Below, piece by piece: positions 11,314-33,570 of a stretch of 33,570 nt of DNA. The position numbers and the translations under genes were made by a program. Below the pieces are notes generated by a model. The model made no database searches. It saw nothing but the letters and a program-made list of their open reading frames with translations, and was not told the DNA's origin. This DNA is from an uncultured Clostridia bacterium. GTDB taxonomy: Bacteria; Bacillota; Clostridia; TANB77; CAG-508. The stretch lies in the NCBI GenBank assembly GCA_963558405.1, contig CAUWGC010000019.1, positions 1-33,570 of the forward strand. The letters are read 5' to 3'. Each line of letters begins with the position of its first letter. Within the stretch, counting starts at the first letter, position 1.

Positions 11314-11347
11314 AAAAGGGAGTTGTTTACAAATCAACTCTCTTTTT
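11313..11347. terminator. Bidirectional terminator between tRNA-Leu and the convergent filament locus
   Basis: AAAAAGGGAGTTG...CAACTCTCTTTTT. Confidence 0.75.
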
Positions 11348-11897
11348 ATTTTATAATTTTATTATTTTTACTCTTATTCTTTTTTATTACATAAATAGTT
11401 TGAACTACTATTGAAATGATTATAAATAAAAAAATTAATTTCATTTGCATAACTTTTGCAAAAATACCTAATATTGGAATACTATTTTCTACTTTTCCTA
11501 TTATTTTTTTATTTTCAATTTCTTCAATATTATTATATAAATTATTATCTCCTTTAGTAATAAAATGTACCTTACCATCTATATTACTTATATTATTTAT
11601 TCTTTGTATTTTAATTTGATTATTATATTCATATACAATTATATCGTTTATGTAATATTTGTCATTTTTATTTGCTATAATTAAATCATTTCTTTTTATA
11701 TCAGGATACATCGATTTATCATTATATGTATGTATTGTAATATTCCCAAATCTTATATATTGTTTTTGTGTAAAAAAATTATATATATTGTATATTATAC
11801 TATATATTAGAAGAAATATTATAAATATGTAAAAAGCTATTTTAATTATTCTTTTTAGAAGCTTATATATAATTTCACTTATTCTTCTCTTCTTCAA
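11346..11897 (-). CDS. SipW-like (S26) signal peptidase paralogue, catalytic His replaced
   Basis: TM - KSMYP..NDLII - KIQRI (normally THRV) - TKGDNN..IIGKV - TM; TTG start overlapping the upstream gene. Confidence 0.8.
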   Translation of the reverse strand: MKKRRISEIIYKLLKRIIKIAFYIFIIFLLIYSIIYNIYNFFTQKQYIRFGNITIHTYNDKSMYPDIKRNDLIIANKNDKYYINDIIVYEYNNQIKIQRINNISNIDGKVHFITKGDNNLYNNIEEIENKKIIGKVENSIPILGIFAKVMQMKLIFLFIIISIVVQTIYVIKKNKSKNNKIIK

Positions 11898-12444
11898 TTT
11901 TTCTTTTCATTCTCCTTTTTTCTTTTTTTTCATTTTTTGTTATTGTATATAAGCAAATTAATAAAAAAATGAGCATCATAATTAATAGTATTATTTTATC
12001 CTGCATTTGTTTTGCTAATTTACCCAAATATGGTATTTTTATTATTACTTTTCCTTTTATATTTTCAATTCTTGTTACTTTTTTGTCTTGAGCATTGTTA
12101 TTATCGCCTTTAGTAATATATTCTTTTATTTCATCTTTTTCTACAATATCTATTACTCTATGTGTATTTGTTATTCCTTCCTGTTCAAATGTAATTATAT
12201 CGTCTTTTTCTATATTATCTTGTTTTTTTATTATAATAACATCTCCTATTTTAAGTTCTGGAAACATACTATCTGATGTTATTATATATGCTTGATATCC
12301 TAAAATACCTTTATTATTTTGAATTGAAGTAATCCATAATAAAATTACATTATACAAAATTATTATAAAAAATATTAATATTGTTACCTTTATTATTTTT
12401 GCATATTTTTTTCTTTTTACTATAGAATCTATATCGTATTTCAT
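11875..12444 (-). CDS. SipW-type signal peptidase I (S26), intact dyad
   Basis: SDSMFPELKIGDVII, THRV, TKGDNNN..D, GKV; start reassigned to ATG 12444 (MKYDID), which has RBS AGGAAGG and avoids overlap with the giant gene. Confidence 0.9.
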   Translation of the reverse strand: MKYDIDSIVKRKKYAKIIKVTILIFFIIILYNVILLWITSIQNNKGILGYQAYIITSDSMFPELKIGDVIIIKKQDNIEKDDIITFEQEGITNTHRVIDIVEKDEIKEYITKGDNNNAQDKKVTRIENIKGKVIIKIPYLGKLAKQMQDKIILLIMMLIFLLICLYTITKNEKKEKRRMKRKIEEEKNK

Positions 12445-12502
12445 TTTTACCTTCCTATGTATTAATTTATAATGTAAGACAGGTAGTTTTTCCTGTCTTA
12501 CA

Positions 12503-15500: not shown

Positions 15501-18500
15501 TTTCCATATACTACTGCTGTACTTCCATTTCCACCAGAGTATAAACTATTTCCTAATTTTGAATTTTTAACATGCACATATGTATTTCCTTGGACTACAC
15601 CTTCATTTCCTCCACCATATACATTTTGCATTACTTCTGCATTTTCTATGGTTAGATTAGTATCGGTATTTACTCCTGCTCTATTTCCACCACCATATAC
15701 GCTTCCACTTACAGTTCCATTTATAATTACTTTTGTATAATTGGTTGTTGCTTGATCTCCTCCACCATATACATTTGTTATATTACCTGAAGTAATTGTA
15801 ACATTTGAATTTGTTGTACTACCTCCTTGATTATTTCCACCATATACATTTTGAGCTGTTCCATTATTGGTTATAACATAACTATTATCTACTGTACCCG
15901 AAGTGTTAGAACCACCAAATATGTTTTCAGCAGTTGCACCATCCAAATTGATATTTGATGTATTTACATTTGCTGCATAACCACCACCATAAATTGCTGG
16001 AATTGTATTATCAGATTTTTGTAATTTTATATTGCTGGTTTGAGAATCAGCTTTATTTCCTCCTCCATATATTGCAGTTAATATTTTTCCTCCATTTACA
16101 TTTATATTTGTTGTAATAGTGGTTCCACCCATATTGTTTCCGCCATACACATTTTCAATATTACCAGCTGTTATTTGTACATTACTTTGATTTATTATTC
16201 CATCTGTATTAGAGCCACCATATACATTTTGAGCATTTCCACCTTGACAATATATATTTGGATTTAGAACAGCTGCCATATTTCCTCCTCCAAATATATT
16301 TGGAATGAAGTTACTTGATTTAATTAAATAGATTTCTGCATTTTCTGTGTCTACTTTGTTTCCTCCTCCATATACTGCAGATGTAATCTCTCCTCCATTT
16401 ATGGTTATTTTCGCTTGTTTTGTAGTTCCACCTATATTATTTCCGCCATAAATAGTTTCTGCACTTCCTGATATAGATTCTATATTACTATTTTGTACTG
16501 TACCTGTTTGATTAGATCCACCGTATATGTTAGATGTATTTCCTCCTTTTATATATACATTAGTTGTATTAACACTAGCGGAATTTCCACCTGCATATAT
16601 TTCTTTTGTATAGCCTCCATTTATATTAATGTTTGATGTAGTTGCATTAGCTCTATCTCCACCACCAAATATTCTGTTGTTAGTACCACCATTAATAATA
16701 ATATTAGTACTTCCTTCAACAATTCCAACGTTGCCTCCTCCATATATGTCTCCAGTATGATTTCCTCCTGTTATATTTATATTAGTTGTTCCTTCTGTTT
16801 TAGCAATGTTGCCTCCTCCGTATATATTAGAGTTAACATCGCTTGCAACAACAATATTTGATATACCTTTTAATTTTGCCATATTATCAAATCCAGAAAT
16901 ACCAGCTCCTGCACCAAATACTTGTCCATTTATTTTTGGATTACCTTCTATTCTTATGTTAGAATTACCTTCCATTTGGGCTAAATTTGGTTTGTTAGAA
17001 TAATTATATCCACATCCTGAAGCATATATATTTCCATTTATTGTTGCTGAACCAGAAATTAGTATATTACTATCTCCATATAGAGAACCACCATCATTAG
17101 CTGTAACATTAGAATTTAAATACTCTGTATAACCATATCCTCCTCCATATATATTTCCTTGTACTTCTCCACCATATACATTTATATTTACAGAAGTTTC
17201 AAATGATTGCCCATAATTTTTGAACTTATCGGAAGAATTGACACTATATCCTGTTACGCCACCAGCTCCTGCTCCATAAATATTTCCAGTTATTCTGCCA
17301 GATGTTATATTTACAGTTATTGTTCCATAAAAATATGAATCACAAATATTTCCTGTCTCATTTTGGTTTACATTTCCATTATTATCAATTACTCCCATGT
17401 TTCTTCCTAAACATCCACCATATAATTCTGCTATTGTTCCTCCTGTTATATTTATGGTTGTTGTACCTAAAAATGTGTTGTTTGGATAATTCCATGGTTT
17501 AGGATCCCACCAACTTCCTTCTGTTGGTATGTTTTGTGAATCACCTATACTTCCTCCTAGCACACGTCCAACCATTCCATTTTTTATATTTTCTGTAACT
17601 CTGGAATAATTATTTCCACATGCAGAACCTCCAGTTAATAAATTAACATCATAATCATATCTTGAATGATCTGTTGTACTGTTTTTTATGTCTATAGTTA
17701 TATCAACTTTAAAACTGTCTTCCATTGATGAACCCATAAAATCATGTGAAGTTGTTTGACCTTGACCACTTGCTGTACCTGGACTTCCACCACCTATAAT
17801 TCTTGCATATGTACCACTTTTTATAAGTATTTCTGAATTGTTTCTAGGTAATTTAGTATAATTATATTGTAACCATCCACATATAATATGAAAAGCTGGT
17901 GCTCTTCCACCTAATAAACCCTGATTTTGGTTTGAATTTGCATAACTTGTCATAGTTATGCCTTCGCCCATTGTTAAACTATATCCTTGTAAATAAAAAT
18001 ATAATTGATTGTTTCCACCATAAAAATCTAAATATTGAAATGTAGTATCTGCTGTAAGATATCTATATGAATTTGTACCACCATAAAAATATAATGTTGA
18101 ATCATAATCTATTCCACCATAGATTCCTGTTATTGTTGCTTTTTTATTATATGTTGAACTTGAATTAGAGTTAAAGAAACTTGTGTTATCATATGTTCCC
18201 ATAATTACAATAATATTTTGACTTACGTCATAATTACTATTTAATTTACTATATGCTGTACTTATAGTTTCTACTGCAGTTTGAGGCGTGTATCCATCAT
18301 TATAATCATTTCCATTATTATAATCAACGTAAATAACTTTTCTGTCTCCATATATAAAAGATCCTTCAACGTTTAACGTATAATTTGAGTTATTTGTTGC
18401 AATTAATTTATATTCTTGTCCTCTTTTTAAATTTTCTAAAGTTAAAGATGTAGCATTTTCTATAGTTTCTTGTGATATTCCCGCAATGTCTACACTATAC

Positions 18501-20953: not shown

Positions 20954-20981
20954 TTGCTACGCTCCAGATAAATTCTTTTTA

Positions 20982-22532
20982 TTATGTGTGTAATATTTTA
21001 TCATATTCACAAATACTTTCTATTTCTTTTATTGTCAATCCTGCATTATCTATACAATGTCTTGTATAAATTTTAGTTAAGTTATCTAATAATGTGTCTA
21101 TGTTGTCTATTTCTAAATCTTCTTTTTCCACGTTAAAATCCAATAGTTTATATCTATCTTTTATTATCATAAGAATATCTTTGTCCTCTGAAATATGTAT
21201 ATTATTTAAAATTGTAAAAGAAGGAAATTCCATAAATTCTTTAAACTCTTTTATATATTCATCAATATCGTTTTGTTCAATATTAGGAAATTGTTTTATT
21301 ATTGCTTCTACTAGTAAATTATAAAAGTAGCTAGCATATTCTAGAACATTATATATTGTTGTATCATCATTTATTTTTTGTAATACATTTGTATATAAAC
21401 CGTTTTTTAGATACTCTTTATATTCGTTTTTTAATTCAGCAAAGATTGTATTAATTTTTACATCTTTGTTTTCTTTTTTAGTAAATAGACTTTTATTGTT
21501 AAGTTTACTTAGTTGTTTTTGATATTCATTTATTTTTTTTAGATTTTTTTTGTTTTCATTTTTATATTTTTCTACTTCTTTATAATTTTGTTTTACTGTA
21601 TCAAAAATAAATTTATATTTAATATAATTTTTGTATTCATATATACTGTTTATAAATTTAATTACATTTTTATTTGTTTCGTCTATATAATCTTTATTTG
21701 TTATTTTTTCCAAAGATTTTTCATTTAGTACTTTTTGATATATTTTTTCTATTTTATCATCTGTATAGTCTTTTATATTTAACTCTTTATTAATAAATTT
21801 TTGTATTATTATTTTTTTATTATTACTAATTTCTTTTTGTAATTCTCTTTTAGTTTCTTGGCATTTTTCTTTAATTTCTTCTTCGTTTATTTTGTATTTA
21901 TTTAAAATGTTATTTTTTTTATTTTCAAAATATTTTTCTATTCTTTTTTCATTTTTTAAATATATATTTTTAATTATGATTTCTATATGAGTTATTATTT
22001 CAGGACATTTCCAATACAAATCTTCAAACTTTGATTTAATTGTTGAAGAATTAATATCTCCTATTTTCATTTCTTGTAAAAATATATCCATATACTCTTT
22101 TGCATATTTACTGTAGTTAAAATCATTACAAGAAATATTGATTCCCATATTTCTGAATATATTAATACAAATCATTATTTGATTATTAACATTTTCTAAA
22201 TTTTCTTTATAGTATCTACCTAATCTATATATTTCTTTGTCTAAATTTGTTTTTTCATAAGGTGTTTTTGTTTCATTTATAACTTCTAATATTTCTTGAT
22301 AATTTTCTATTTGACGCTTTAATTCTTCGATATTTTTATTTTCCGACATATTAATTTTTGTGTTATATCTAGTATTAATTTCATTTAATATTTTTTGTTT
22401 GTATCCATTATATTCTTCTAAAATTTCTTCTACTTTACTTATATATTTTTCTATATTCTTTTCGTTATTTTGTGGAAAAGTAGTTAAAATTTCTTTATAT
22501 ACTTGTATTTTATCAATAATTACATCACTCAT
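20982..22532 (-). CDS. Hypothetical cytoplasmic alpha-helical/coiled-coil protein (516 aa)
   Basis: K/E/N/I-rich, no signal peptide or TM; ATG overlaps the stop of the upstream 37-aa ORF (TAATG). Confidence 0.8.
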   Translation of the reverse strand: MSDVIIDKIQVYKEILTTFPQNNEKNIEKYISKVEEILEEYNGYKQKILNEINTRYNTKINMSENKNIEELKRQIENYQEILEVINETKTPYEKTNLDKEIYRLGRYYKENLENVNNQIMICINIFRNMGINISCNDFNYSKYAKEYMDIFLQEMKIGDINSSTIKSKFEDLYWKCPEIITHIEIIIKNIYLKNEKRIEKYFENKKNNILNKYKINEEEIKEKCQETKRELQKEISNNKKIIIQKFINKELNIKDYTDDKIEKIYQKVLNEKSLEKITNKDYIDETNKNVIKFINSIYEYKNYIKYKFIFDTVKQNYKEVEKYKNENKKNLKKINEYQKQLSKLNNKSLFTKKENKDVKINTIFAELKNEYKEYLKNGLYTNVLQKINDDTTIYNVLEYASYFYNLLVEAIIKQFPNIEQNDIDEYIKEFKEFMEFPSFTILNNIHISEDKDILMIIKDRYKLLDFNVEKEDLEIDNIDTLLDNLTKIYTRHCIDNAGLTIKEIESICEYDKILHT

Positions 22533-22645
22533 TAGTTTTCATCCTTTTTTACATTATTTATTTCTTTTTCTAAATATTTAATAAATTCCTCAACCTGTAG
22601 GTATTTATCTATTAGTTCTTCATCTGATAGTTTTTCTACTTCCAT
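22532..22645 (-). CDS. Small 37-aa protein MEVEKLSDEELIDKYLQVEEFIKYLEKEINNVKKDEN (absent from ORF track)
   Basis: RBS AGGAGG upstream of ATG 22645; stop overlaps the next start; amphipathic-helix pattern. Confidence 0.75.
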   Translation of the reverse strand: MEVEKLSDEELIDKYLQVEEFIKYLEKEINNVKKDEN

Positions 22646-22678
22646 AAGTTCCTCCTGTTAATTGTATTTTTCTTTCAT

Positions 22679-22708
22679 ATATTATCATATTTTGCTATTT
22701 TCTGTCTA
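22679..22708 (-). promoter_or_regulatory. Possible promoter for the sORF-516aa-adhesin-sipW-sipW operon
   Basis: TAGACA-18 nt-TAATAT with TG extension, just after a terminator. Confidence 0.4.
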
Positions 22709-22715
22709 TAAAAAT

Positions 22716-22749
22716 AAAAAATAATCATAGAAAACTATGATTATTTTTT
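22716..22749 (-). terminator. Intrinsic terminator after the putative major pilin
   Basis: Perfect 15-bp IR AAAAAATAATCATAG-aaaa-CTATGATTATTTTTT. Confidence 0.8.
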
Positions 22750-22755
22750 ATCTTT

Positions 22756-23739
22756 TTATTTTGCAACAGAGAATTGTAAATTAAATGATACATCTGATCC
22801 TGAAGCATTGTTTTCACAGTCTACATCTTGTCCTTCTATCCACATATATATTCTTACTTTTGTTACACCTGCTGTTAATCTAAATAATGTTTGATTTTTA
22901 TCAATTACTTGTTTTGTAGAAATTTTTGGAGTAACTTTTTCAAAATTATCTGGATGATGTGTCTTATTTGCTTCTCCAACCTTTACATCTGTTCCTGATA
23001 TATCAGCTTTTATACCATCATAACTTAATTGTGAACCACCTGTTGTTGTAGTAGTTATACCATATGTATCTTTTGCGTGTTGTACAGCTGAAGCTGTATG
23101 AACATCATAATTTGGTTCCCAAATATATGTTGAACTTGTATCTCCTCCATCAAGCTCTTGTGCATTTTGTGAAGTACTACCAGGACCAACATTACCTTTA
23201 ACTAAAAATGCAACTCTTGCAGCATTTTGTAGTCCTCTATCTGTTGTTTCAGGTTTATATTCAACACTTGAATCTGTTGTTAATACTATATCTGTATCTT
23301 GGTCAACTTTAAGGAACACATCAAACGCAATATATTTTCCAGTTGTTCCAGCTTGTTCTGCTGCTTCTTTTGTAGCTTTTAAGATATATTCACCTTGATG
23401 AGAAGAAACTGAACCCGCAAACATATCTAGATATCCACTTGATACATTTCCTGCAGTAGATATAGTTTCTAAAATATCTGGAACTTGATTTTTGTTTGTA
23501 GCATAAGTTGCTGTAGCTCCTGTTATGTCTGTTTTTTGAAGTATTGCTTTCCAATTTGAAGCATCTGCTGAAATTTGTAAACCATTTTGTGCTTGTACAT
23601 TTACATCTATTGTACTAATTGATACAACCTTATTGGCTGTAAACCATGCATATGTTGATGAAACTAACAACACAGCTAATAATAAAAGTAATAATAATGA
23701 GTATTTTAAATTTCCTTTTCTTTTGATATTCTTATTCAT
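22756..23739 (-). CDS. TasA/CalY-like protein with SipW-type signal peptide; putative major filament subunit (327 aa)
   Basis: LLLLLLLAVLLVSSTYA/WFT cleavage motif; T/S/A/G-rich beta body; WIEGQDVDC motif; own promoter and terminator; start moved to ATG 23739 with RBS GGGAGG. Confidence 0.85.
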   Translation of the reverse strand: MNKNIKRKGNLKYSLLLLLLLAVLLVSSTYAWFTANKVVSISTIDVNVQAQNGLQISADASNWKAILQKTDITGATATYATNKNQVPDILETISTAGNVSSGYLDMFAGSVSSHQGEYILKATKEAAEQAGTTGKYIAFDVFLKVDQDTDIVLTTDSSVEYKPETTDRGLQNAARVAFLVKGNVGPGSTSQNAQELDGGDTSSTYIWEPNYDVHTASAVQHAKDTYGITTTTTGGSQLSYDGIKADISGTDVKVGEANKTHHPDNFEKVTPKISTKQVIDKNQTLFRLTAGVTKVRIYMWIEGQDVDCENNASGSDVSFNLQFSVAK

Positions 23740-23773
23740 TTTATCCTCCCGTTTTTTTATTTTTACAGACATA

Positions 23774-23802
23774 AAAATATCATATTAGATATTTATTGTC
23801 AA
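23774..23802 (-). promoter_or_regulatory. SigmaA-type promoter of the putative major pilin
   Basis: TTGACA-17 nt-TATTTT with TG extension. Confidence 0.6.
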
Positions 23803-23816
23803 TGATTTTTTCACAT

Positions 23817-23854
23817 TTGTAATATAGTTGTAATTTTCGTAATTCCTTCGTAAT
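23817..23854. promoter_or_regulatory. Four heptamer direct repeats T(T/C)GTAAT; candidate OmpR/WalR-family binding boxes
   Basis: Repeats start at 23817, 23828, 23837, 23848 (spacing 11, 9, 11), just upstream of the -35. Confidence 0.55.
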
Positions 23855-23857
23855 ATA

Positions 23858-24589
23858 TTATAAATGTTTCTCTGTTATATGCATAGTCATTTTCATTTCT
23901 CCACCAATTATTGCATCAACGCAATCTGGATCATCACCTTCTATCCAAATTACTATTGTAATTTTATCTGTTTCACCAGGCATAAAGTTAGCTCTTTCTT
24001 CTAATACCACTTCCTCATCCGAGAAAAATGGTTTAGTTCCAGTTTCTGGTTCTCCTGTGTATTCATTTATTTTTGCATATATGCTTTGTTGTTCATTTAT
24101 ATATACCATTACCCTTACAGCTTTATCTACATTTTTTATTACATCATCTATATGTATATTATACCAATAATTTATTTTTTCACTTCCCTGATTTTCTAGG
24201 TAAAAGGTATACGCAATATAATTTTCTCCGTTATGTCCACCTTCTGCTTCTTCGTTTAAATTTTTAGGTAACCAGTTAACTGATATATTATCCATAAATT
24301 CTAATTTATCTGCTTGTAATATTTGTTTTTGTTCTTTTGTTTCAGAATTTTCATACATAACAAGCCCACTTTTTTTATTTTGCTGTGGATCTAATGATAT
24401 TGTAAAATCTCCTAAATCATATACTGTTTTTAATATAAAATATATAATCACAAGAAAAATAATTGTTATTAATATTGCTACTCTTATAACTTTAATTTTT
24501 ATTTCTCTTTTTCTAATTTTATCAGATTTTAATGTTTTCTCATAATTATTAATCGATTTTTTCTCTTTTGTCTGGCTATTTGTTTTCAA
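23858..24589 (-). CDS. Membrane-anchored paralogue of the major pilin (243 aa)
   Basis: Basic N-terminus + TM without a TYA/WF-type site; shares YIAxxxxL, AxRV and WIEGDDPDC with 22756..23739; TTG start with RBS AAGGAAG. Confidence 0.75.
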   Translation of the reverse strand: MKTNSQTKEKKSINNYEKTLKSDKIRKREIKIKVIRVAILITIIFLVIIYFILKTVYDLGDFTISLDPQQNKKSGLVMYENSETKEQKQILQADKLEFMDNISVNWLPKNLNEEAEGGHNGENYIAYTFYLENQGSEKINYWYNIHIDDVIKNVDKAVRVMVYINEQQSIYAKINEYTGEPETGTKPFFSDEEVVLEERANFMPGETDKITIVIWIEGDDPDCVDAIIGGEMKMTMHITEKHL

Positions 24590-24677
24590 TTTTTTACTTC
24601 CTTTCTTTTTTATATTGATTTGATTTAATTCTTATGATATAAAATAGTAAAAGTTTTTCTATTTTAAGGAGATTATT

Positions 24678-25271
24678 ATGAAAAAATTTAAACTTTTTTT
24701 AATTATATTGTCAATACTTTTTATTTGTATTACAGTATTTCTTGTAGTTCAAACTTATTCTAAATATCTTAGTTCAGCAAATGGAGAAACTACTATTTCT
24801 ATTGCAAAGTGGAATATTTTAGTTAATAACTTATCTGTAAAAAATAATACAGATATTTCTTCTACAATTGTTCCTGTTTTTCCTGGAAATGATAACATAT
24901 CTAGCAATGTTATTGCTCCAACAGCTGAAGGATATTTTGATTTATACTTAGATTTTTCAGAAACAGATGTATCTTTTAATTATAACATTTCAAGTACTGT
25001 TTCAGACGAAAGCCCTGTTAAAGATTTTATAATAGTTGGTTACTCAATAGATAATGCACCCAGAATTGATTTTAACAATTCTCAAGAAAAAGTTATAACA
25101 GAAGATATTCTTTTATCTTCTAATATAAAAAATAGGACTATAAGAATTTTTGTTAAATGGATTGATGACGAATCTCAAACTATGTCTAATGAAGAAGATA
25201 CTTTAGCAACAAATTCTCCTTATCCTGCCATGTTTACAACAAAAATATCTTTTAATCAAATTATTGACTAA
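24678..25271 (+). CDS. TasA/CalY-like pilin-type protein with SipW-type signal peptide
   Basis: TM-QTYS/KY, AKWNILVN, IAPTAEG, TDVSFNY, VKW..DT; RBS AAGGAG; clear paralogue of 32262..32885. Confidence 0.8.
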   Translation: MKKFKLFLIILSILFICITVFLVVQTYSKYLSSANGETTISIAKWNILVNNLSVKNNTDISSTIVPVFPGNDNISSNVIAPTAEGYFDLYLDFSETDVSFNYNISSTVSDESPVKDFIIVGYSIDNAPRIDFNNSQEKVITEDILLSSNIKNRTIRIFVKWIDDESQTMSNEEDTLATNSPYPAMFTTKISFNQIID

Positions 25272-25277
25272 TTATAC

Positions 25278-25310
25278 TAAAGTGGATAATATTTTATACT
25301 ATCCACTTTA
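25278..25310. terminator. Bidirectional terminator between convergent pilin genes
   Basis: TAAAGTGGATA-11 nt-TATCCACTTTA. Confidence 0.75.
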
Positions 25311-25910
25311 ATTTTGTTGTGTTGCAATTAATACCATTTTTATTAGTAAACTAGGTTTGTCCGAATTGTTAGTATAATATTCATAAGCTTTATTTCCCCA
25401 GTTTGTATCTAATTCATCATTTCCAGATTCAAACGGCCATTCTACAATAACTTTAACTTTTCCTACCCCGTTTTCTCCAATTAAATTTGAATCATCTAAA
25501 TTTACAATTATTTTAAATGGATATTCTTGTTCTATTTTATTTTCTAAATCTTCTGATGTTGTATTTTCATCTACTTCAAATTTTTCACCTAATATTTCTA
25601 TTGATTCTATTTCATAATCTAATTTTGCAGAAACTTCTCCTTTATTACGAACATTTATCTCTTTTTCATATCTTTCCATTCCTGGATATATTTTATCTAA
25701 ATCTATTAAAATATTTGTTATTGTTTCTCCATCATCTGCCACAAATTCAATGTTCCATGATGTAACATGTGCAGTTATTGATGTAGCCACTCTTGTTGCA
25801 TATACAAACCATGCATATGTATTAAAAACAAGTAATATTGTTAAAAATATAATATGTCTTATCTTTATTTTTTTAATTATATTTAGTATTGTTCTTTTTT
25901 TTTTATATCT
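25308..25910 (-). CDS. TasA/CalY-like pilin-type reading frame with SipW-type signal peptide but no ATG/GTG/TTG ahead of it; probably the C-terminal part of a SipW-pilin fusion
   Basis: Frame open from 25910: RYKKKRTILNIIKKIKIRHIIFLTILLVFNTYA/WFVYATRVATS...; the track GTG at 25790 lies after the cleavage site and has no RBS; motifs SWNIEF, IYPG, VEWPFE..DT. Confidence 0.75.
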   Translation of the reverse strand, partial: RYKKKRTILNIIKKIKIRHIIFLTILLVFNTYAWFVYATRVATSITAHVTSWNIEFVADDGETITNILIDLDKIYPGMERYEKEINVRNKGEVSAKLDYEIESIEILGEKFEVDENTTSEDLENKIEQEYPFKIIVNLDDSNLIGENGVGKVKVIVEWPFESGNDELDTNWGNKAYEYYTNNSDKPSLLIKMVLIATQQN

Positions 25911-26521
25911 TTATTTGGCTCACTTATATTTTCTTGCTCTTCAGATTCTTTTTCTTCTTTTATTTCTTGTCTTCTAAGAATAAAATCAACAATAATTTTT
26001 GCAACAATAATAGCCATAGGTACAATAATTAAAAAATAGAATGCATATAAGTTTCTAGTTATTTTATTAATAAAACTTAAAATAACTGACTTATAAATTA
26101 CTTTTCCATATATTTGGCTGTCATCAATCTCAGGATCTGCAGTATCGTTTGCAATACCTTTTGTTATAAATTTATATTTTTCGTTTTCTTGTCTTTTTTC
26201 TATAACTTGATGTGTAATAATAATATTGTTTAAATCTCCTTTTTTAGCTTTGTATGTGATGTCATCTCCAACATTAATTTCGCTTGCATCAATTTCCTTT
26301 GAAATTATAATATCTCCAATTTCATATTTAGGAATCATACTACCTGTAACTACACTAAAAATTCTCATTCCACCTATTGTTATATTATTATTAGAAAATC
26401 TTTGTATGCAAACAACAATTAGAATAGATAATACTAACAAAAAACATATTGTATATATAATATTTCCTATAATTTTAAAAACTTTATTATTAATTATTTT
26501 TTTTAACATAACTATTATCAA
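25883..26521 (-). CDS. SipW-type signal peptidase I (S26), Ser/His present
   Basis: VTGSMIPKYEIGDII, THQV, TKGIAN..D, YGKV; two TMs; TTG start overlapping the upstream TGA; ends just after an A10 run. Confidence 0.88.
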   Translation of the reverse strand: MIIVMLKKIINNKVFKIIGNIIYTICFLLVLSILIVVCIQRFSNNNITIGGMRIFSVVTGSMIPKYEIGDIIISKEIDASEINVGDDITYKAKKGDLNNIIITHQVIEKRQENEKYKFITKGIANDTADPEIDDSQIYGKVIYKSVILSFINKITRNLYAFYFLIIVPMAIIVAKIIVDFILRRQEIKEEKESEEQENISEPNKDIKKKEQY

Positions 26522-27633
26522 TCATTTATCCTTTCTAAATATTGATCTATGTGTTTACTAAAAATCATTTGTATTTCTTGCATTGTAGCCATTTTTTTGT
26601 ATTTTATCATTGAATACTTATTTCCAATCATTTCTTTTAATTGCTCTTCTGTTAATGAACTATCCAAATCCATAATTTTATCTAACATTTGATCTACAAT
26701 ATTTTCTTTTAATTTATTTGTTATTTCTTCATTTTCTGCTTGATCCTTATTTAGAGTATTTACAACTAAGTAATTAAGCAAAAAAGTTTCATCTGCTAAT
26801 TTTTTTAAATCTCCATTGTCTAAATAATCACTTTTTTCTGATATATTTTGAGTTTTATCATCAAAATTATCCTGTATGTAATTCCATAACTTTACAGCAT
26901 ATTGAAAATTTACATTTTTTAATACCACGTTTGTCTTTTTTATTGGAGGTCTTATTAAACTTATATGTTTTTTTTCTAATATTTTATATACTTCTGAGCT
27001 AGTTAAATCATTTATTTTTTGTTCTACCCTTATAATTCTTTCCAAAATATTATCTTCACTTTTATCTTTAGTATTATTAACTTTGGTTTTAATACTAAAA
27101 CTCATTTCTATATCTTCATCAGAGTAATTAGTTTTACCATTGTACTCTATTTGCTTATCATTTTTAAATTCACATTCTTCTATTGAATTTAAGTTTTTCT
27201 TTTTTTGATTTATAAAAGCTTTCATATTTTGAATTAAAGTATATATTAATTTATTTTCATATGTATCATAACTTTCTTCTTTGTTTATGTTTAATATTTT
27301 GGATGGTCTAACATCACCAGTTTTTTTATCAATATCTTGTATCAAATTTGTATTTTTAGAAAGGTGCTTTATGCTATCAACAGTGATTTTTCTTGCTAAT
27401 TCAATTTTTACAATATCTTCTTCATTAACTATAAACCTATTGGGATTTCTAAGAATATTATCTATGTATGGTATAGTTTCTTCAAACATTCTTATCCATT
27501 CGGTATCTTTTATTGTTTTTTCATAGTCTGTAACAACTCTAACAGATGAATTTGTATTATTTACAAACTCACTTTTTAATTTTTCTGAAGTCTTATCGTA
27601 CAATTCTATTATTTTAAAATCTTCCATAATCAT
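26518..27633 (-). CDS. DUF2357 / McrC N-terminal-like protein with no recognisable PD-(D/E)xK nuclease motif
   Basis: ILRNPNRFI, ARKI..DSIKHL, PSKILN, SYDTYENKLI signature; directly downstream of an McrB-like gene. Confidence 0.7.
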   Translation of the reverse strand: MIMEDFKIIELYDKTSEKLKSEFVNNTNSSVRVVTDYEKTIKDTEWIRMFEETIPYIDNILRNPNRFIVNEEDIVKIELARKITVDSIKHLSKNTNLIQDIDKKTGDVRPSKILNINKEESYDTYENKLIYTLIQNMKAFINQKKKNLNSIEECEFKNDKQIEYNGKTNYSDEDIEMSFSIKTKVNNTKDKSEDNILERIIRVEQKINDLTSSEVYKILEKKHISLIRPPIKKTNVVLKNVNFQYAVKLWNYIQDNFDDKTQNISEKSDYLDNGDLKKLADETFLLNYLVVNTLNKDQAENEEITNKLKENIVDQMLDKIMDLDSSLTEEQLKEMIGNKYSMIKYKKMATMQEIQMIFSKHIDQYLERIND

Positions 27634-27638
27634 CTTCC

Positions 27639-29165
27639 TTATGTTAATTTTTTAAGTCTTAATAGATATTCTTTGCATTCTTTCATTTTATCTTTTCCAA
27701 ATGTAGTATCTAAAAAATCTATATAAGGATCTATTTCATCCCTTATATATGATATATTTAATTGTTCAAATTTTCTTAATATTTTTTTTGCAATAAAGTA
27801 ATCAACTCCTGCTACTTCGTCTCCACCACATGCTACAAATACTGGCACAAATTTTTTCATATGAGAAACAATACGGTTACCAAATGCTATTCTAAAATGT
27901 CTTATTACATAGTCGTCCATTTGCTCTATTTTATTTAAAGTATCATCTGATATTGGATTTTCTTCCATTGCATTTGTAAATAGCTTGTCTATATAACTAT
28001 AATTAATATCCATTGCTTCCTTTTCTATTGGTTTAAATACTTTTCCCTTGTCATTAATATCTATTGGCATTGCTCTATCATATACTTTATCTGTTACCAT
28101 AAATGTAGAATCGTCATTATTTATTGTTCCTATATACCACATATTTGCAGGAATTTTTAATTTTCCGCCTTTTATATTTTTAGGATCGCTTTTCCAACTG
28201 TTTGGTACTAATTCAATAACCCATTCTTCTTTATTAGGCATTTCCAATATAGATAGCATTTCTGCAAAATAATACTCAACACGCGAAATATTCATCTCAT
28301 CTAAAATTACTGTATATATATCATCAGTATATCCTGCCATATACATTTCTTTTAATACATCTGTTTCGTTAAATTTTTTTGTAAATTCATTAAAATATCC
28401 AAAAAGTTCGGTTCTATCTCTCCATGATGGCTGAACTGAAGCAACGCAAGAATCGTGTTTTAAAAACTTTCCCCAAGCATATGCAAGAGATGTTTTACCA
28501 GTACCAGAAATACCTTGTAATATTACTAGTTTAGTTGATGCTAAAGCTGAAATAAATAATCTCATCATATCAATTGAATAATATAATTTTAATTTTGATG
28601 CTGCAAAGTTTCTAAAATTTTCACATAATTCAGGTAATGTAAAATTATTTTCATAATTTTTAATTTTGTATTCACTAAATTCCTCATCTATAGAATTTAA
28701 TTTTGCAAATCTTATTCCTGTATTACCATCTTCTTGAGTATCTTTTGTATCATTTAAGTCTTCCTCAGCGCTTTCACCTGGTTTTAATCCAAGTTGTGAG
28801 ACTTTCATTGCTAAAATCTCATCTTTTTCCTTCATTAAATTTGCTATTTTTCCATTTAAAGTAGCTACTTCTTCTAATAATTCGTCTTGTTCTATTGCTG
28901 TTTTTCTAAATCTTAGATACTTTCTTAATAACAAATATATAAGTGCTATAACTAATACAACAAGTACAATTAAACATGTTATAGCTATTATTACTAAAAT
29001 CCACTCTGGCATAGTTAAATCATTTTTGTAATTTTGTAATATTTCTTGATATCTATTTATATTAAATATTTGTACAATTCCATCCCCAATTCCCTTTAAA
29101 ATTGTATATATTCCTAAAAAAAATTGAGAAAGAAATTCATATAAAAATCTTGTAAATGTTTCCAT
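27639..29165 (-). CDS. Membrane-anchored McrB-like AAA+ NTPase
   Basis: N-terminal hydrophobic helices + coiled coil; Walker A GISGTGKTS, VQPSWRDRTELFGY, Walker B ILDEMNISRVEYYFA, McrB signature GTINNDDST, DKVYDRA. Confidence 0.88.
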   Translation of the reverse strand: METFTRFLYEFLSQFFLGIYTILKGIGDGIVQIFNINRYQEILQNYKNDLTMPEWILVIIAITCLIVLVVLVIALIYLLLRKYLRFRKTAIEQDELLEEVATLNGKIANLMKEKDEILAMKVSQLGLKPGESAEEDLNDTKDTQEDGNTGIRFAKLNSIDEEFSEYKIKNYENNFTLPELCENFRNFAASKLKLYYSIDMMRLFISALASTKLVILQGISGTGKTSLAYAWGKFLKHDSCVASVQPSWRDRTELFGYFNEFTKKFNETDVLKEMYMAGYTDDIYTVILDEMNISRVEYYFAEMLSILEMPNKEEWVIELVPNSWKSDPKNIKGGKLKIPANMWYIGTINNDDSTFMVTDKVYDRAMPIDINDKGKVFKPIEKEAMDINYSYIDKLFTNAMEENPISDDTLNKIEQMDDYVIRHFRIAFGNRIVSHMKKFVPVFVACGGDEVAGVDYFIAKKILRKFEQLNISYIRDEIDPYIDFLDTTFGKDKMKECKEYLLRLKKLT

Positions 29166-29177
29166 GTTTTACCTCAT

Positions 29178-30182
29178 TTATATTTCTATTATATTTTTAA
29201 GTATATTTTTGTTTTTTATTATTTCACTATAATTATCTAAATTTTTATTAATTAGTATATAACTGAACATATTAAGTTTTTCTAGATTTATATAATTTAC
29301 TTCAAATGAATTATCTAAAATAATAGCTATTTTAAACCCGCTTCTCATCAACTCATAAATTTGTTCTTTGTTTTCATCGTAATCTTTATACTTTAATTTT
29401 AAATTTATTTTATCTTGTACAGCCTGATGTTCTATAATGTTTAATATTCCTTTTATTTTTTTATTTTTTTCTAACAGTGTTTTGGCAAATTCCACAATAT
29501 ACTGTTTCTTAAAATCTTGTTTTAAAATATCTCTTATAATCTTTACTGTAATTAAATAATATTCTATATACAACTTGTCTTCATTTATTATTCCATTATT
29601 AAAAACCTTATTTATTGCTATTTCACTAAATATCATTGGAAATTTTATATGTTGTTCTAAATTTACTCTATATACATTTTTAATACCTCTATAATTTGAT
29701 ATTTTTAAATTAAATTCTTTTGATTCAAATTTATTAAGAAACTTATTTTTTTCTTCATTCCATTCATTTAATATGTTAAATAAATTTATTTTAAATTCTT
29801 CATCTTTTTTATTTAATACTTTTATTCTTAATTTGTATATATTTTCCACTTGATTTTTTATTTCTTGTTTTTTTATAACATCATCAAAATACATTATATA
29901 CAAAAAGAAAATTCCCATATTATTTATAATCTGTTTTTTTTCATTATAATTTTCTATAAGATAATCTGTTTTTGATTTAAGTGAGTATATTATTTTTTTT
30001 CTTAATGTTAGGTTTGAATCTAAATCTTCTTTAAAAAAATTATTATATCTAACATTTACATATGTATATAAATAACTGTCACATATTTCTTTATCATATT
30101 TGTATTCAAAAACTAATTTCATATATTTAGTTATATATTTTTTTGTTATTTCTATATATTTATTCATCAAATTAATCGTCAT
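29178..30182 (-). CDS. Hypothetical cytoplasmic protein with degenerate EAL-like C-terminal region
   Basis: KINLKL...IYELMRSGFKIAIILDNSF resembles EAL LxxxGxxIAIDDFG but lacks the ExL and DDFG motifs; RBS AAAGGAG. Confidence 0.6.
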   Translation of the reverse strand: MTINLMNKYIEITKKYITKYMKLVFEYKYDKEICDSYLYTYVNVRYNNFFKEDLDSNLTLRKKIIYSLKSKTDYLIENYNEKKQIINNMGIFFLYIMYFDDVIKKQEIKNQVENIYKLRIKVLNKKDEEFKINLFNILNEWNEEKNKFLNKFESKEFNLKISNYRGIKNVYRVNLEQHIKFPMIFSEIAINKVFNNGIINEDKLYIEYYLITVKIIRDILKQDFKKQYIVEFAKTLLEKNKKIKGILNIIEHQAVQDKINLKLKYKDYDENKEQIYELMRSGFKIAIILDNSFEVNYINLEKLNMFSYILINKNLDNYSEIIKNKNILKNIIEI

Positions 30183-30198
30183 TTATAATTTTGCTCCT

Positions 30199-31147
30199 TT
30201 ATGTTATATTTACTTCTATTATAGAAACTGTATTTTTATCTGGGTACGTATAATCTTTTGTTTTATCGTTTTTATAAAATCTAATATTTTTACTTGACAA
30301 AGCATCTATTCCAATTGTTATTTCATTCACATAATAATATCCGATTAATTCTTGTAGTTTTTTGATTAATAGCATTTATGTAATTTTTATCTGTCATATC
30401 TATTCTTACTTTTTTAGGATCAAACTTTAGAGTAATTTCTCCAGAATAACATTTTGCTTTATTTTCCTCAGATAAGTTTAAATAAACATTTACATCTATC
30501 CTTTGTCCCTTTTTGTATGATTCAAATGGTTCTTTTACAATATAATATGACTGTGTATTTGTTATATTTAACTCTAAATATGCTCGGTTTACTTTATCTT
30601 CAATTTCATACGTTATATTTTCTTTTCCAACAACTAATTTAAATTCAGCTCTTAATTCCTTAGTATATTCTCCATTAGATTTAGCTATAATTTCAATCCA
30701 CGCAATATCTCCGTTATTCATTACTGCATTTGGTGTTATTCTTAATGAAAAAGTATCAGAATTTGATTTTGCATCTATTATCCCACTTGTTTTACTTAAT
30801 TGACATATTACATTATTTGAACAATTGTATGTTATATCATATCCAATATCATAACTTGCACTTTTTAAATTATTTTTCAGACTATTCATATTTATAGTTA
30901 TATTATAATCTTCTACTCCAGACCAATTATTAATTTGATATATTTCACCATCTTCTTTTAATTTGTCACTATAAAAGTAAAATTCTTTACTTTCCATAAT
31001 AAAATTATTAAAACTTTTTGTTATATATCTTCCTAACACTGATAATATTGATATAAATATTACTGCTATTATAAAAACAACTGCTATTATTTTTAATTTT
31101 AATATGAAAATATTTTGTTTTTTATGCTTAATCCTATGGTTTATCAT
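30199..31147 (-). CDS. Pilin-type secreted protein with a +1 frameshift near 30343; about 315 aa if restored (track ORF 30323..31147)
   Basis: TM-VLG/RY signal; beta-rich body; +1 frame continues GYYYVNEITIGIDALSSKNIRFYK...IIEVNIT to TAA at 30199, which abuts the next RBS. Confidence 0.75.
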
Positions 31148-31162
31148 GCTATACCTCCGATA

Positions 31163-31744
31163 TTAGGATTCCTCTACAATCTGTTTTGCATCTATTTTTA
31201 TTTCTACCACTTCTAATATATCTTGATACTGGTTAGAATTATATGATTCTGGAAAGTATACTACAAGTGTATATGTATTAATACCTTGTACCGAATGTTT
31301 GAATATTTGTTTTTGTGTTTTTATTGTTCTAAAATATGTTCCATCTTTATCTTTTTCTATAATATCATCTGTTTCTATTGTACTTGCATTTTCATTTTGA
31401 TAGTCTTCATTTAAATATAATTTATAATCTAATGGCAAGTTTGTAGTAGTTTTTATATTTAAATCGTATTCAATATCTGTTTGTGCTATTTTATCTTCTT
31501 TTTCATTAGATACCGTAAATCTGTATACATATGGTTCTTTTCTTGGAACAATTTTGCCTAGATTTAAGGTCATTGATTGAAAATCTGTATTTAATACATA
31601 AAATGCTATATCTATATTAGCATTAGAACTAGAACTACTTTCGTATTTTGATAAAGTCAATGTATAAATTTGTACAACAATTATAAAACATAGGATTAAT
31701 ATTACAAATTTTATGTACAATCTTACATTTCTTTTATTTATCAC
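31163..31744 (-). CDS. TasA/CalY-like pilin-type protein with SipW-type signal peptide
   Basis: TM-TLS/KYES; IVP, YRFTVSN, TDIEYDL, terminal beta strand IDAKQ; RBS GGAGG. Confidence 0.75.
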   Translation of the reverse strand: MINKRNVRLYIKFVILILCFIIVVQIYTLTLSKYESSSSSNANIDIAFYVLNTDFQSMTLNLGKIVPRKEPYVYRFTVSNEKEDKIAQTDIEYDLNIKTTTNLPLDYKLYLNEDYQNENASTIETDDIIEKDKDGTYFRTIKTQKQIFKHSVQGINTYTLVVYFPESYNSNQYQDILEVVEIKIDAKQIVEES

Positions 31745-31746
31745 TA

Positions 31747-32253
31747 CTATCCTCCATTTTCTTTTGGTTTGTATATAATTGCAATTCCTATTAGTATCAT
31801 AGTAATAATTATTGGTATTAATACTGATGGAGATTTTAAAACCTTTTTTAGTATTTTTATGTTTTTAAATACTTTAACAACTTTTCCTACAACATATTCC
31901 TTACCAATAGGTTCATCATTTGTATTATTAGCATCGCCTTTTGTTATAATTTTATTATTTTCAATTTCTATTACCCTATGAGTTATATAAGATTCATATT
32001 TTTTATATACAATTATATCATTTGTTTTTATTTGTTTTGTAATTTTTACAATTATAATATCTCCAATATCTAAAGTTCCTGACATACTGCCTGTTGCAAC
32101 TTCAAAAAAAGTATATCCAAATACATTTACATACTTTTTGTCTAAGATTTTTATTTGTATATTATAATATATTGTAAATATTAATATTAAAATTGCTATA
32201 CCTACAAAAATATTTAGTATAAATTCTAATATCATATTTATAACTTTTTTCAT
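31747..32253 (-). CDS. SipW-type signal peptidase I (S26), intact dyad
   Basis: ATGSMSGTLDIGDII, ITHRV, TKGDANNTND, VVGKV; two TMs. Confidence 0.9.
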   Translation of the reverse strand: MKKVINMILEFILNIFVGIAILILIFTIYYNIQIKILDKKYVNVFGYTFFEVATGSMSGTLDIGDIIIVKITKQIKTNDIIVYKKYESYITHRVIEIENNKIITKGDANNTNDEPIGKEYVVGKVVKVFKNIKILKKVLKSPSVLIPIIITMILIGIAIIYKPKENGG

Positions 32254-32261
32254 TTTTACTC

Positions 32262-32885
32262 CTAGTTTCTTATTTCATTTGTTAATGGCTTTATTTCTTC
32301 TCCTAAATATTGGGTAACTTTTATATTTACTGGTATTGAGATTTTATTGTCTGGAATTGAACCCAATTGTGTATCTTCTACATTTGTAGTTTCATCTTCA
32401 TTCCATATAACAGTAATTGCAATATTATTTTTTATTCCCTTTTTTATTTCATCTAAATTTATAATTCCTGTATATACATTGTTATTGGTTAATATTAATT
32501 CGTTATTTGTTTCAATTTCTTTTATTGATGAAATTTTAATTTTTGTTTTTTCAAGTTCAGATAAGTCAAAAGAAATTTCATATTTTATTGAAACATCTGT
32601 ATTTTTAGGATCAATTACTATATTAAAATCACCAGATAAACCAGGTGCTAATTTTCCTTGTTCACTTTTATTACTTTGTCCTACATTTATATGGTCAATT
32701 ACAAAATCTTCATTAATTCCTGAAGAAATATTAGTATTATTTACATTTATTATCCATTTTGCATTTTCTACTTTTACATTACCAGAAACATTACTTTCAA
32801 AAATTGCATATGTATCCACCAATTTATATATAGTAAATATTAGCATTAATATTGAAATAAATACTATAAATAATTTTTTATTCAT
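32262..32885 (-). CDS. TasA/CalY-like pilin-type protein with SipW-type signal peptide
   Basis: TM-DTYA/IFES, AKWIINVN, LAPGLSG, TDVSIKY, VIW..DT.LG, VTQY. Confidence 0.8.
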   Translation of the reverse strand: MNKKLFIVFISILMLIFTIYKLVDTYAIFESNVSGNVKVENAKWIINVNNTNISSGINEDFVIDHINVGQSNKSEQGKLAPGLSGDFNIVIDPKNTDVSIKYEISFDLSELEKTKIKISSIKEIETNNELILTNNNVYTGIINLDEIKKGIKNNIAITVIWNEDETTNVEDTQLGSIPDNKISIPVNIKVTQYLGEEIKPLTNEIRN

Positions 32886-32888
32886 TTT

Positions 32889-33413
32889 TTATTCCTTTGT
32901 TTCGACTTTTTTATTTTCTTTTATTTCTGCAACAACAATATATATTTCATAAATGAACGCAATTAGCGATGGGAAAACTATTAAAAATAAAAATCCCCAC
33001 TTTGATTCTAATATACCTAGTATAGTTCCTATTTTACTTATTCTACTTGCACTATCTATTGGACCAATTAAATATTTGCTAGATATTTGGGTGTCTCCAT
33101 TAATTGTATAAATAGTATTTAAACTATTTGACTTTTCCATATTTGTAACTTCACCTAAAGTTATTTCCACTTTATTTAACTCTTTATTATAAAATAATAT
33201 TTTGTCACCTGTTTCTATTTTATCTTTTTTATTTAAAATAGCTATATCACCTTTTTTAAAATATGGTTCTACCTCATTGCTATCTATTATTATTAATGTA
33301 GAATTTCCAAATTCACTTACTTTGTAGTCATTATATGATAATAAACAAATGGTAACCAATACTGCTATAATTGCATATATTGCAAATACTACATTTCCAA
33401 TAATTCTTTTCAT
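32889..33413 (-). CDS. Degenerate SipW-like membrane protein (no catalytic Ser/His)
   Basis: Same architecture (TM, xxPxFKKGD, GD.I.F, IG, IGTIL..L.S..GF TM) but SNEVEP instead of GSMxP and no HR; RBS AAGGAGG. Confidence 0.7.
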   Translation of the reverse strand: MKRIIGNVVFAIYAIIAVLVTICLLSYNDYKVSEFGNSTLIIIDSNEVEPYFKKGDIAILNKKDKIETGDKILFYNKELNKVEITLGEVTNMEKSNSLNTIYTINGDTQISSKYLIGPIDSASRISKIGTILGILESKWGFLFLIVFPSLIAFIYEIYIVVAEIKENKKVETKE

Positions 33414-33450
33414 AATTAATCCTCCTTGAATTTTTCTTTTTTACACCAGA

Positions 33451-33479
33451 ACTATATCATAACAACTTTTCTTTTTCAA
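33451..33479 (-). promoter_or_regulatory. SigmaA-type promoter heading the first filament operon
   Basis: TTGAAA-17 nt-TATAGT with TG extension. Confidence 0.65.
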
Positions 33480-33570
33480 CTTTTTTTATACTTTTTCTTG
33501 ATTTTTTTTGTTATAATCTCGAGTTTGACAGTTTGAAAATAAAAAAATCTTGAAACTGATTGATATTAGC

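Follow-up and report, generated by a model that had tools for sequence, protein, structure and literature searches.

A membrane-anchored McrB-like GTPase and its nuclease-less McrC-like partner in a conserved SipW signal peptidase gene cluster of an uncultured Clostridia bacterium

Contig CAUWGC010000019.1 of the assembly GCA_963558405.1 from an uncultured Clostridia bacterium was analyzed as a whole stretch of 33,570 nucleotides (nt), hereafter the window. Its minus strand carries two adjacent genes related to those of McrBC, the textbook GTP-driven restriction enzyme. The first of them (27639..29165) is an open reading frame (ORF) of 508 amino acids (aa) encoding an McrB-like GTPase of the type named CoCoPALM, with a membrane anchor, a heptad stalk, an AAA+ core of the NxD type and a C-terminal helical domain. 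The second (26518..27633) is a 371-aa ORF encoding a nuclease-less McrC-like partner that matches Pfam DUF2357. Both genes lie within a cluster that encodes signal peptidases of the SipW type and signal-anchored proteins. A scan of species-representative genomes revealed at least 613 related stretches, and the best 80 of these (53–86% identity) were analyzed as loci, in which ORFs were called and compared with the cluster proteins of the window by BLAST. The 80 loci come from gut and rumen metagenome-assembled genomes labelled Clostridia, Bacilli, Tenericutes/Mollicutes, Erysipelotrichaceae and others, and their G+C content ranges from 0.236 to 0.497.

In the N-terminal part of the GTPase, residues 55–80 (28926..29003, minus strand) form a predicted transmembrane helix with a 19-residue Kyte–Doolittle mean of up to 3.61, and a second, weaker hydrophobic stretch (1.0–1.3) was noted at residues 8–34. 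The helix is directly followed by the basic residues R81, K82, R85, R87 and K88 and by a coiled-coil-like heptad stalk at residues 83–122 (28800..28919, minus strand), called by a crude scan of a/d positions. A comparison of the stalk with the PDB gave zipper-like matches only (Fos, E about 1, non-significant) and none with FtsB. Given the positive-inside rule and the need of an NTPase for nucleotide, the basic residues after the helix suggest that the C-terminal part is cytoplasmic; the AAA+ ring would then be located in the cytoplasm, below the membrane on a stalk of approximately 40 residues. A first-pass annotation, made from the sequence of the window, had described a transmembrane segment and a coiled coil in place of a DNA-binding domain. 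This description was borne out by the heptad stretch and by the presence of the transmembrane segment in all 79 homologues among the 80 loci that have a complete N-terminus.

The McrB-type AAA+ core of the GTPase, assigned by profile similarity and motifs, occupies residues 190–365 (28071..28598, minus strand). It contains, on the same strand, the Walker A motif GISGTGKT (residues 218–225, 28491..28514), the Walker B motif LDEMN (residues 288–292, 28290..28304) and, at the sensor-1 position, the NxD[D] motif NNDD (residues 349–352, 28110..28121). Walker A, LDEMN and N-x-D are each kept in 80 of the 80 loci, so that the first-pass annotation was right as to the intact Walker motifs. Its third motif, NxxD, has to be corrected: N349 and D351 are invariant in 28 diverse relatives (32–64% identity), position 352 is D, E or Q, and the 80 loci have NNDD (76) or NNDE (4), from which it follows that the conserved signature is NxD[D/E]. 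Residue R364 and the triplet G429-N430-R431 are also invariant or nearly so in the 28 relatives.

As for the origin of the core, the best solved relative of the GTPase found by phmmer was McrB of Escherichia coli (E = 0.011). A family profile built from 28 relatives placed three McrB structures at the top of its PDB matches, 6hz4 (4.7e-5), 6ut6 (1.2e-4) and 7vsr (1.3e-4), with the fourth match at only E = 0.17. The NCBIfam McrB model PRK11331 matched a Ruminococcus homologue (E 3.9e-7). The window GTPase gave no match to Pfam AAA_5 at E ≤ 0.01, and 11 of the 30 relatives scanned gave one. According to the Nei–Gojobori method, nonsynonymous substitution (dN) relative to four relatives was 0.09–0.14 for the GTPase and 0.19–0.36 for the partner, and synonymous substitution (dS) was about 0.9–1.7 for the pair as a whole and 1.0–1.67 for the partner; as dS is near saturation, no more can be read from the values than a dN far below dS, which indicates purifying selection on both genes.

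The partner matches Pfam DUF2357, the McrC N-domain, at residues 27–153 (E = 3e-12). By hhalign, homology of the partner family to the McrC N-terminal domain covers residues 48–252 (26878..27492, minus strand; probability 83.7, E 8e-6, against a 705-aa plasmid DUF2357 protein), with residues 55–140 being the most conserved stretch. The remaining tail, residues 253–371 (26521..26877, minus strand), bears no nuclease signature and consists, in the AlphaFold2 model, of a strand (262–272) and four predicted helices (275–295, 302–323, 329–337 and 349–370). Its invariant residues are N256, D259, F284, Y288, L289, E353, Q355 and Y365, with no invariant Lys among them. The tail is homologous to long McrC forms (724 aa) up to their residue 375. 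Long forms of this kind (717–821 aa) are encoded by 4 of 78 loci, whose labels are Ruminococcaceae, Ruminococcus or Clostridia, and correspond to the short partner with a coiled-coil-like C-terminal extension of about 350 aa (hhalign 99.9, partner residues 42–358).

No Pfam nuclease family was found at E ≤ 5 in ten McrC-like proteins (that of the window and those of nine loci); DUF2357 was found in six of the ten, and four long forms gave no match or matched coiled-coil families only. Sequence and profile searches of the PDB with the partner yielded no significant match, McrC structures included, and its tail matched helical proteins only (phmmer, E ≥ 0.047). An hhalign comparison of the partner with a plasmid relative bearing PDDEXK_7 gave no alignment. 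The absence of a visible PD-(D/E)xK motif from this DUF2357-like protein, reported in the first-pass annotation, is thus in line with Pfam, PDB sequence and profile searches, hhalign, a low-confidence AlphaFold2 model and Foldseek; a nuclease was not detected in the partner by any of them, the fold-level check being weak given a model with a predicted template modelling score (pTM) of 0.46. The E353-x-Q355 triplet was considered as a degenerate (D/E)xK motif and rejected, as it lies in a predicted helix with no acidic residue upstream at the usual spacing. A nuclease acting in trans was not apparent either, since no Pfam nuclease family was matched by the 17 cluster proteins. A match of the neighbouring protein p193 to RE_ScaI was sub-threshold, occurred in one of 20 family members and was not accepted.

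Partner residues 67–119 (27277..27435), which belong to the best-conserved stretch, have a predicted local distance difference test score (pLDDT) below 50 in the monomer model. The combination of low model confidence and high conservation fits a segment that becomes ordered only inside the GTPase ring, and this part of the partner may fold only there.

The genes of the module are closely spaced. The GTPase stop codon is separated from the partner by 5 nt to the first ATG and by 11 nt to the ATG at 27627. The latter is the likely start (MEDF..., 369 aa), since it is preceded at 6 nt by the Shine–Dalgarno sequence AAGGAAG and since the 100%-identical database cluster of the partner is 369 aa long. 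The TGA stop codon of the partner lies inside TTGA, whose TTG is the start of the next gene (25883..26521, minus strand), an overlap of 4 nt that agrees with the first-pass annotation; GAAAGGA is located 7 nt upstream of this TTG, and an alternative ATG lies 12 nt further down. The gene encodes an archaeal/ER-type signal peptidase I of the SipW type (TIGR02228, E 2.7e-23), whose Ser61, His104 and Asp129 show no variation among 25 orthologues. Upstream of the GTPase gene, at a distance of 12 nt with GAGG in the gap, ends the gene for p334 (29178..30182, minus strand), a 334-aa protein with no hydrophobic segment that is predicted to be cytoplasmic. No Pfam, NCBIfam or PDB match was obtained for p334, and no Pfam domain was present among its 120 listed homologues.

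TIGR02228 matches five SipW paralogs of the cluster (E 2.7e-23 to 9.2e-6), four of them above the cut-off, and the catalytic Ser and His are kept in three of the five. Besides the peptidase that follows the partner, there are upstream paralogs at 31747..32253 (minus strand; Ser and His present) and 32889..33413 (minus strand; His missing) and downstream ones at 11875..12534 and 11346..11897. Paralogs 32889..33413 and 11346..11897 lack the catalytic His (a gap in one, Gln in the other) and may be non-catalytic and chaperone-like.

The position of the pair is well conserved. Wherever there is room for it (78 of 78 loci), the gene immediately after that of the GTPase is McrC-like, and in 70 of 76 loci with room a SipW-like gene comes directly after the McrC-like one. 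A SipW-like ORF was found by BLAST in 77 of the 80 loci, and one of the three misses, L075, was recovered by NCBIfam; its order is SipW, GTPase, long McrC and giant protein, and the association thus extends to high-GC Clostridia. Flanks of at least 9 kb are present on either side in 41 loci. All 41 contain the McrC-like gene, 39 a SipW gene of the 25883 type, 37 the gene for p197, 36 that for p160, 32 that for the giant protein and 17 that for the 516-aa helical protein, and 432 of the 468 cluster-family ORFs lie on the GTPase strand. The pair is therefore fixed in the middle of the cluster in a co-directional order, p334 (in part of the loci preceded by, and joined to, SipW), GTPase, McrC-like partner and SipW, with SipW paralogs and signal-anchored proteins on both flanks. 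Closest homologues in defence islands without sipW or pilin genes would have spoken against the reading of the first-pass annotation; the 80 closest loci are SipW clusters.

In 14 of the 80 loci (L054, L055, L059, L063, L066–L070, L072–L074, L077 and L079; for example, L054:7842-9998), the place directly before the GTPase gene is taken by an ORF of 646–756 aa that fuses SipW to p334, with a gap of −4 to +17 nt between the two genes. In this fusion, a SipW-type peptidase with two membrane helices is joined by an acidic linker to a complete p334 domain; the p334 family aligned with the L054 fusion over p334 residues 4–313 (hhalign, probability 99.8, E 1.6e-27). Stand-alone p334 was found by BLAST in 39 of the 80 loci, and both forms together in none. 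Neither form was found by BLAST in 27 loci, and inspection of one of these (L017) revealed a divergent p334 at the corresponding position (probability 95.6). p334 belongs to the core of the cluster. In the fusion, p334 is joined after the second SipW membrane helix, at the cytoplasmic C-terminal end, and given the usual SipW topology the fused domain would face the cytoplasm. The SipW–p334 fusion is a new observation of this analysis and, in the manner of a Rosetta-stone fusion, connects the cytoplasmic genes with the peptidase.

The remainder of the cluster extends from 11346 to the end of the window and makes up, together with the genes above, a single cluster of approximately 17 genes, syntenic as a whole in the related loci and almost all on the minus strand, in a window whose G+C content is 17–32% per kb. 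No terminator-like site was found in 20000..33570, and a promoter scan gave 127 sites against 126 expected by chance. Upstream of p334 are genes for the signal-anchored proteins p274 (30323..31147), p193 (31163..31744) and p207 (32262..32885), all on the minus strand. On the other side of the module lie the genes for p160 (25308..25790, with the frame open to 25910), the signal-anchored 197-aa protein p197 (24678..25271, plus strand), p243 (23858..24589), a 338-aa beta-sandwich protein (22756..23772), a cytoplasmic helical protein of 516 aa with no hydrophobic segment (20982..22532) and a giant signal-anchored protein of 2816 aa with no family match (12503..20953). Eight cluster proteins, the giant one included, have an N-terminal hydrophobic anchor, followed in four of the eight by a motif like T-Y-[AS]-x-[FY], which is typical of SipW substrates. 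Three have no hydrophobic segment at all, namely, the partner, p334 and the 516-aa helical protein.

Two neighbours of the module have peculiar features. The p160 frame is open for 120 nt upstream of its GTG (25790..25913), where it encodes a signal anchor ending in TYAWF and contains no ATG, GTG or TTG. A run of ten A residues lies at the junction of the SipW stop codon and p160, a run of eleven is found there in the closest relative (L026), and in L007 SipW and p160 form one 418-aa ORF; the upstream frame could be due to a start codon of a non-canonical kind, to slippage at the homopolymer or to a fault in the assembly. The gene for p197 is the only one of the cluster on the opposite strand. 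Its homologue in 37 of the 41 full-flank loci is nearly always inverted in the same way, and p197 may be separately transcribed.

Beyond the cluster, the window contains a tRNA-Leu gene (11230..11313) and genes for Ham1, two ABC transporters, a YgjP-like protein, a tRNA/rRNA methyltransferase, a TPM-domain protein and LemA. These are housekeeping genes, which indicates that the flanks are not a defence island. A search of the window with Rfam found one tRNA only, and PHROGs gave nothing relevant. No known defence family (methyltransferase, nuclease or other) was found in the cluster by Pfam, NCBIfam or PADLOC.

The family to which the GTPase belongs is very large. At least 8000 relatives were found among 90%-identity clusters (all 8000 scored candidates were significant), and 50%-identity representatives contained 8269 at E ≤ 1e-3 and 762 at E ≤ 1e-30. 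A tree sample was composed of the 150 best representatives and the window GTPase; after 19 fragments were dropped, 132 full-length rows were kept, of which 37 have one or two membrane helices, 41 have about four and 54 are soluble, with N-terminal regions of 400–500 aa. A quick tree of the core by maximum likelihood, midpoint-rooted for drawing only, places 36 of the 37 GTPases with one or two helices on one side of a branch with a Shimodaira–Hasegawa-like approximate likelihood ratio test value of 99, where they are joined by one row scored with three or more helices. The four-helix GTPases (proteins P0282-P0390) constitute a separate supported sister group.

The genes for the soluble relatives with 27–38% identity are carried by plasmids (from Deinococcus, Polaromonas and Bacillus cereus) and by a single contig that was deposited as an unverified phage. 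These relatives have 750–820 aa, and the partners encoded next to them have 630–705 aa, in one case with PDDEXK_7; no SipW was found near them in the four records. Three of the four records (two plasmids and the unverified phage contig; L081, L082 and L084) share a four-gene layout of a Walker A/AAA protein of approximately 1050–1100 aa, a protein of approximately 480–535 aa, the GTPase (approximately 800 aa) and the McrC-like protein (approximately 630–705 aa). Among 283 plasmid and two phage-collection matches to the window GTPase, none covered 80% of the query or reached 60% identity. Nuclease-bearing, mobile, defence-like forms are thus the outgroup, and the anchored nuclease-less forms are those tied to SipW.

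Comparison with solved McrBC of E. coli (6hz4, 6ut6 and 7vsr) shows that the window pair shares with it the AAA+ core with Walker A, Walker B and sensor-1 Asn, a DUF2357 partner and adjacent genes. Unlike it, the window pair has the NxD motif, a membrane anchor instead of a DNA-binding domain and no detected PD-(D/E)xK nuclease, and it is not placed in a defence island. According to Bell et al. (eLife 2024, PMC11090510), the NxD variant defines a major McrB branch, and the shortened motif may modulate the rate of hydrolysis. Within this branch, the authors named CoCoPALM a large clade of NxD GTPases with an FtsB-like membrane/coiled-coil region; their account of it is a single paragraph, worded alike in the preprint, that defers the clade to a later paper and presents no functional study. 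In that account, coiled coils are usually found on both the McrB and McrC homologues of CoCoPALM, and the likeness to FtsB was non-significant (HHpred E 1.2). In the present analysis, the GTPase N-terminus was likewise not accepted as an FtsB homologue, having neither a Pfam DivIC nor a PDB FtsB match, and only a resemblance is left.

The module of the window has three of the four features stated for CoCoPALM, namely, an NxD GTPase with an N-terminal membrane helix and heptads, an McrC homologue and neighbours of the signal peptidase family; it differs in that its partner is the short form (369 aa) without a coiled-coil extension. The peptidase of CoCoPALM is described by Bell et al. as SipA-like (HHpred 4N31), whereas the window paralogs match SipW models, three of the five with catalytic Ser and His. 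The module very probably belongs to this published architecture, and the association of an McrBC-like pair with a signal peptidase is already published there. Full-text literature searches found no further treatment of CoCoPALM or of McrBC linked to SipW or pili. With the CoCoNuT/PDC-M26 group, the window GTPase shares the NxD branch, and it is closer to that group than to E. coli McrB (E 5.6e-34 versus 0.011). Loss of the McrC nuclease occurs in the CoCoNuT branch according to Bell et al., in which case HEPN or other nucleases are always adjacent. Unlike these systems, the 17 cluster proteins of the window include no HEPN or other nuclease that could be found.

The operon tapA-sipW-tasA of Bacillus subtilis is a SipW-dependent operon for a matrix fibre. 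The cluster resembles SipW fibre operons, such as sipW-bsaA-bsaB-bsaC of Clostridium perfringens, in having a SipW-type peptidase and small anchored secreted proteins, and differs from them in its five SipW paralogs, 2816-aa protein, three cytoplasmic proteins and anchored GTPase and in having no Peptidase_M73 match. In a preprint by Kivimaki et al. on C. perfringens, secretion of a SipW-operon protein is described as dependent on type IV pilin; according to one of its headings, efficient secretion of the oligomer of the TasA-like BsaA depends on some genes associated with type IV pili. Such a dependence offers a precedent for an NTPase-driven machine that aids SipW-dependent proteins.

A ring NTPase with a central stalk at the membrane is found in FliI6-FliJ of the flagellar and type III secretion systems and in the alpha3beta3-gamma assembly of F1. 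The likeness of the window module to these would be one of working principle, with the arrangement predicted: a hexameric P-loop ring, a partner inserted into the pore, and tethering at the cytoplasmic face of the membrane next to a secretion or processing apparatus. Homology does not extend beyond the P-loop, the substrates of SipW should travel via Sec, and no export gate was identified in the window.

Taken together, the module is, on balance, probably a GTP-driven, membrane-tethered regulator or motor of the processing or assembly of SipW-dependent fibres and not a restriction system, and a role in surface-fibre biogenesis rather than in defence appears reasonably likely. By analogy with solved McrBC complexes, the GTPase would assemble as a hexamer, and the conserved segment of the partner would insert into the pore of the ring and stimulate GTP hydrolysis. 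Judging from the genomic context, hydrolysis would result not in DNA cleavage but in a conformational action on the inner side of the membrane. This action could be passed on via the stalks and membrane helices, and via p334, to the SipW peptidases, where it would gate or drive the steps by which SipW-dependent subunits of surface fibres are processed, released or polymerised. That the module is a true mechanical motor rather than a switch is somewhat less likely than not. A more far-reaching version can be put forward only tentatively, namely, that an McrBC motor was exapted as the engine of a previously unrecognised machine for surface filaments (a new kind of pilus biogenesis) in Gram-positive bacteria, widespread in gut Bacillota. 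In such a machine, the GTPase ring with its McrC-derived central plug would be docked to the SipW peptidases via p334 as an adaptor, and GTP hydrolysis would extract, hand over or polymerise the signal-anchored fibre subunits. As regards the first-pass proposal of a motor kept without restriction function, the retained motor, the lost nuclease and the SipW setting stand; a drive for filament assembly, extraction or signalling was suggested there, and it keeps here the conditional form given above.

Several points weigh against a role in fibre processing. The coiled coil of the GTPase was called by a crude heptad scan and should be regarded as putative. The AlphaFold2 model of the partner is poor (mean pLDDT 64.5, pTM 0.46, low confidence beyond residue 296), and a Foldseek search of the PDB with this low-confidence model gave no match at E ≤ 0.001, the best being TolC with a TM score of 0.15. 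No Pfam or NCBIfam match to Peptidase_M73, the TasA/camelysin fold, was found in the cluster proteins, the anchored proteins had no other Pfam match either, and profile searches of the PDB with the candidate fibre subunits gave no match. For the 338-aa protein, the Atlas indicated structural neighbours of the Bact_surface_Ig-like type (TM 0.75) and a Peptidase_M73 lead (0.85, 26% family share). The assignment of the neighbours as filament subunits or pilins, also made in the first-pass annotation, is weakly supported. Fibres of the TasA type in Bacillus are not known to depend on an NTPase in the cytoplasm. Effectors that span the membrane are frequent among abortive-infection systems. The relatives at 27–38% identity, outside the clade, look defence-like, and the candidate defence protein PDC-M26A of PADLOC is the best family-library match of the window GTPase (E 5.6e-34), over the AAA+ core only, as it also is in 14 of the 14 relatives tested. 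A functional or experimental study of any family member was not found in the literature searched.

Of the other explanations, a GTP-dependent switch survives best, though it seems unlikely. The ring, partner and p334 would sense the nucleotide state and license SipW cleavage, or couple it to a signal such as cyclic di-GMP, with no mechanical work done. The partner tail and p334, neither of which bears an enzymatic signature, are compatible with such a role, as is the possible effect of the shortened NxD motif on hydrolysis rate raised by Bell et al. Strict conservation of all catalytic motifs in the GTPase speaks less for it, being as compatible with turnover as with switching. As for the signal, an Atlas lead connected p334 with EAL proteins (score 0.90, 130 shared features), and in two Ruminococcus loci, L075 (L075:5469-6224) and L080 (L080:5300-6055), the first gene of the cluster encodes a stand-alone EAL protein (PF00563, E 1.4e-46); it is, however, absent from the other 78 loci. 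The identification of p334 itself as EAL was not supported, since no EAL structure appeared in the PDB profile search, hhalign with a real EAL protein gave a probability of 0.13 and the 120 listed homologues are devoid of Pfam domains.

An envelope-linked defence or abortive-infection system is less probable still. In such a system, an anchored ring would sense phage attack on the fibre or envelope and the partner would act as the trigger, with the membrane helices killing or arresting the cell without a nuclease; the first-pass annotation had named membrane-linked defence of a phage-receptor pilus as its alternative. The layouts of the soluble relatives, with their long partners and one PDDEXK_7, and the match to PDC-M26A speak for this possibility, and the four-helix sister group (41 of the 132 rows) suggests that fusion to membrane segments is recurrent in the branch. 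However, the fixed operon position within a cluster of approximately 17 genes, the breadth of conservation (53–86% identity, 24–50% GC) and the fusion of p334 to a signal peptidase argue against defence, as do the housekeeping flanks, the absence of known defence families from the cluster and the absence of a close match, by coverage or identity, among the plasmid and phage-collection matches. A conventional type IV restriction enzyme with its nuclease in trans, or the decaying remnant of one, is scarcely credible: homology to McrB and to the McrC N-domain is what it has in its favour, whereas the N-terminus has a membrane anchor and no DNA-binding domain, no cluster protein matches a nuclease family, and decay does not agree with motifs that are strict in 80 of 80 loci, dN well below dS and at least 613 related stretches.

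If the reading as a regulator or motor of SipW-dependent fibres is true, the defence motor of McrBC would have been recruited to a function at the cell surface. The family concerned is found mostly in uncultured low-GC Bacillota of the gut and rumen, whose surface structures are barely characterised, and the SipW–p334 fusion offers a concrete, testable physical link between its cytoplasmic module and the signal peptidase.

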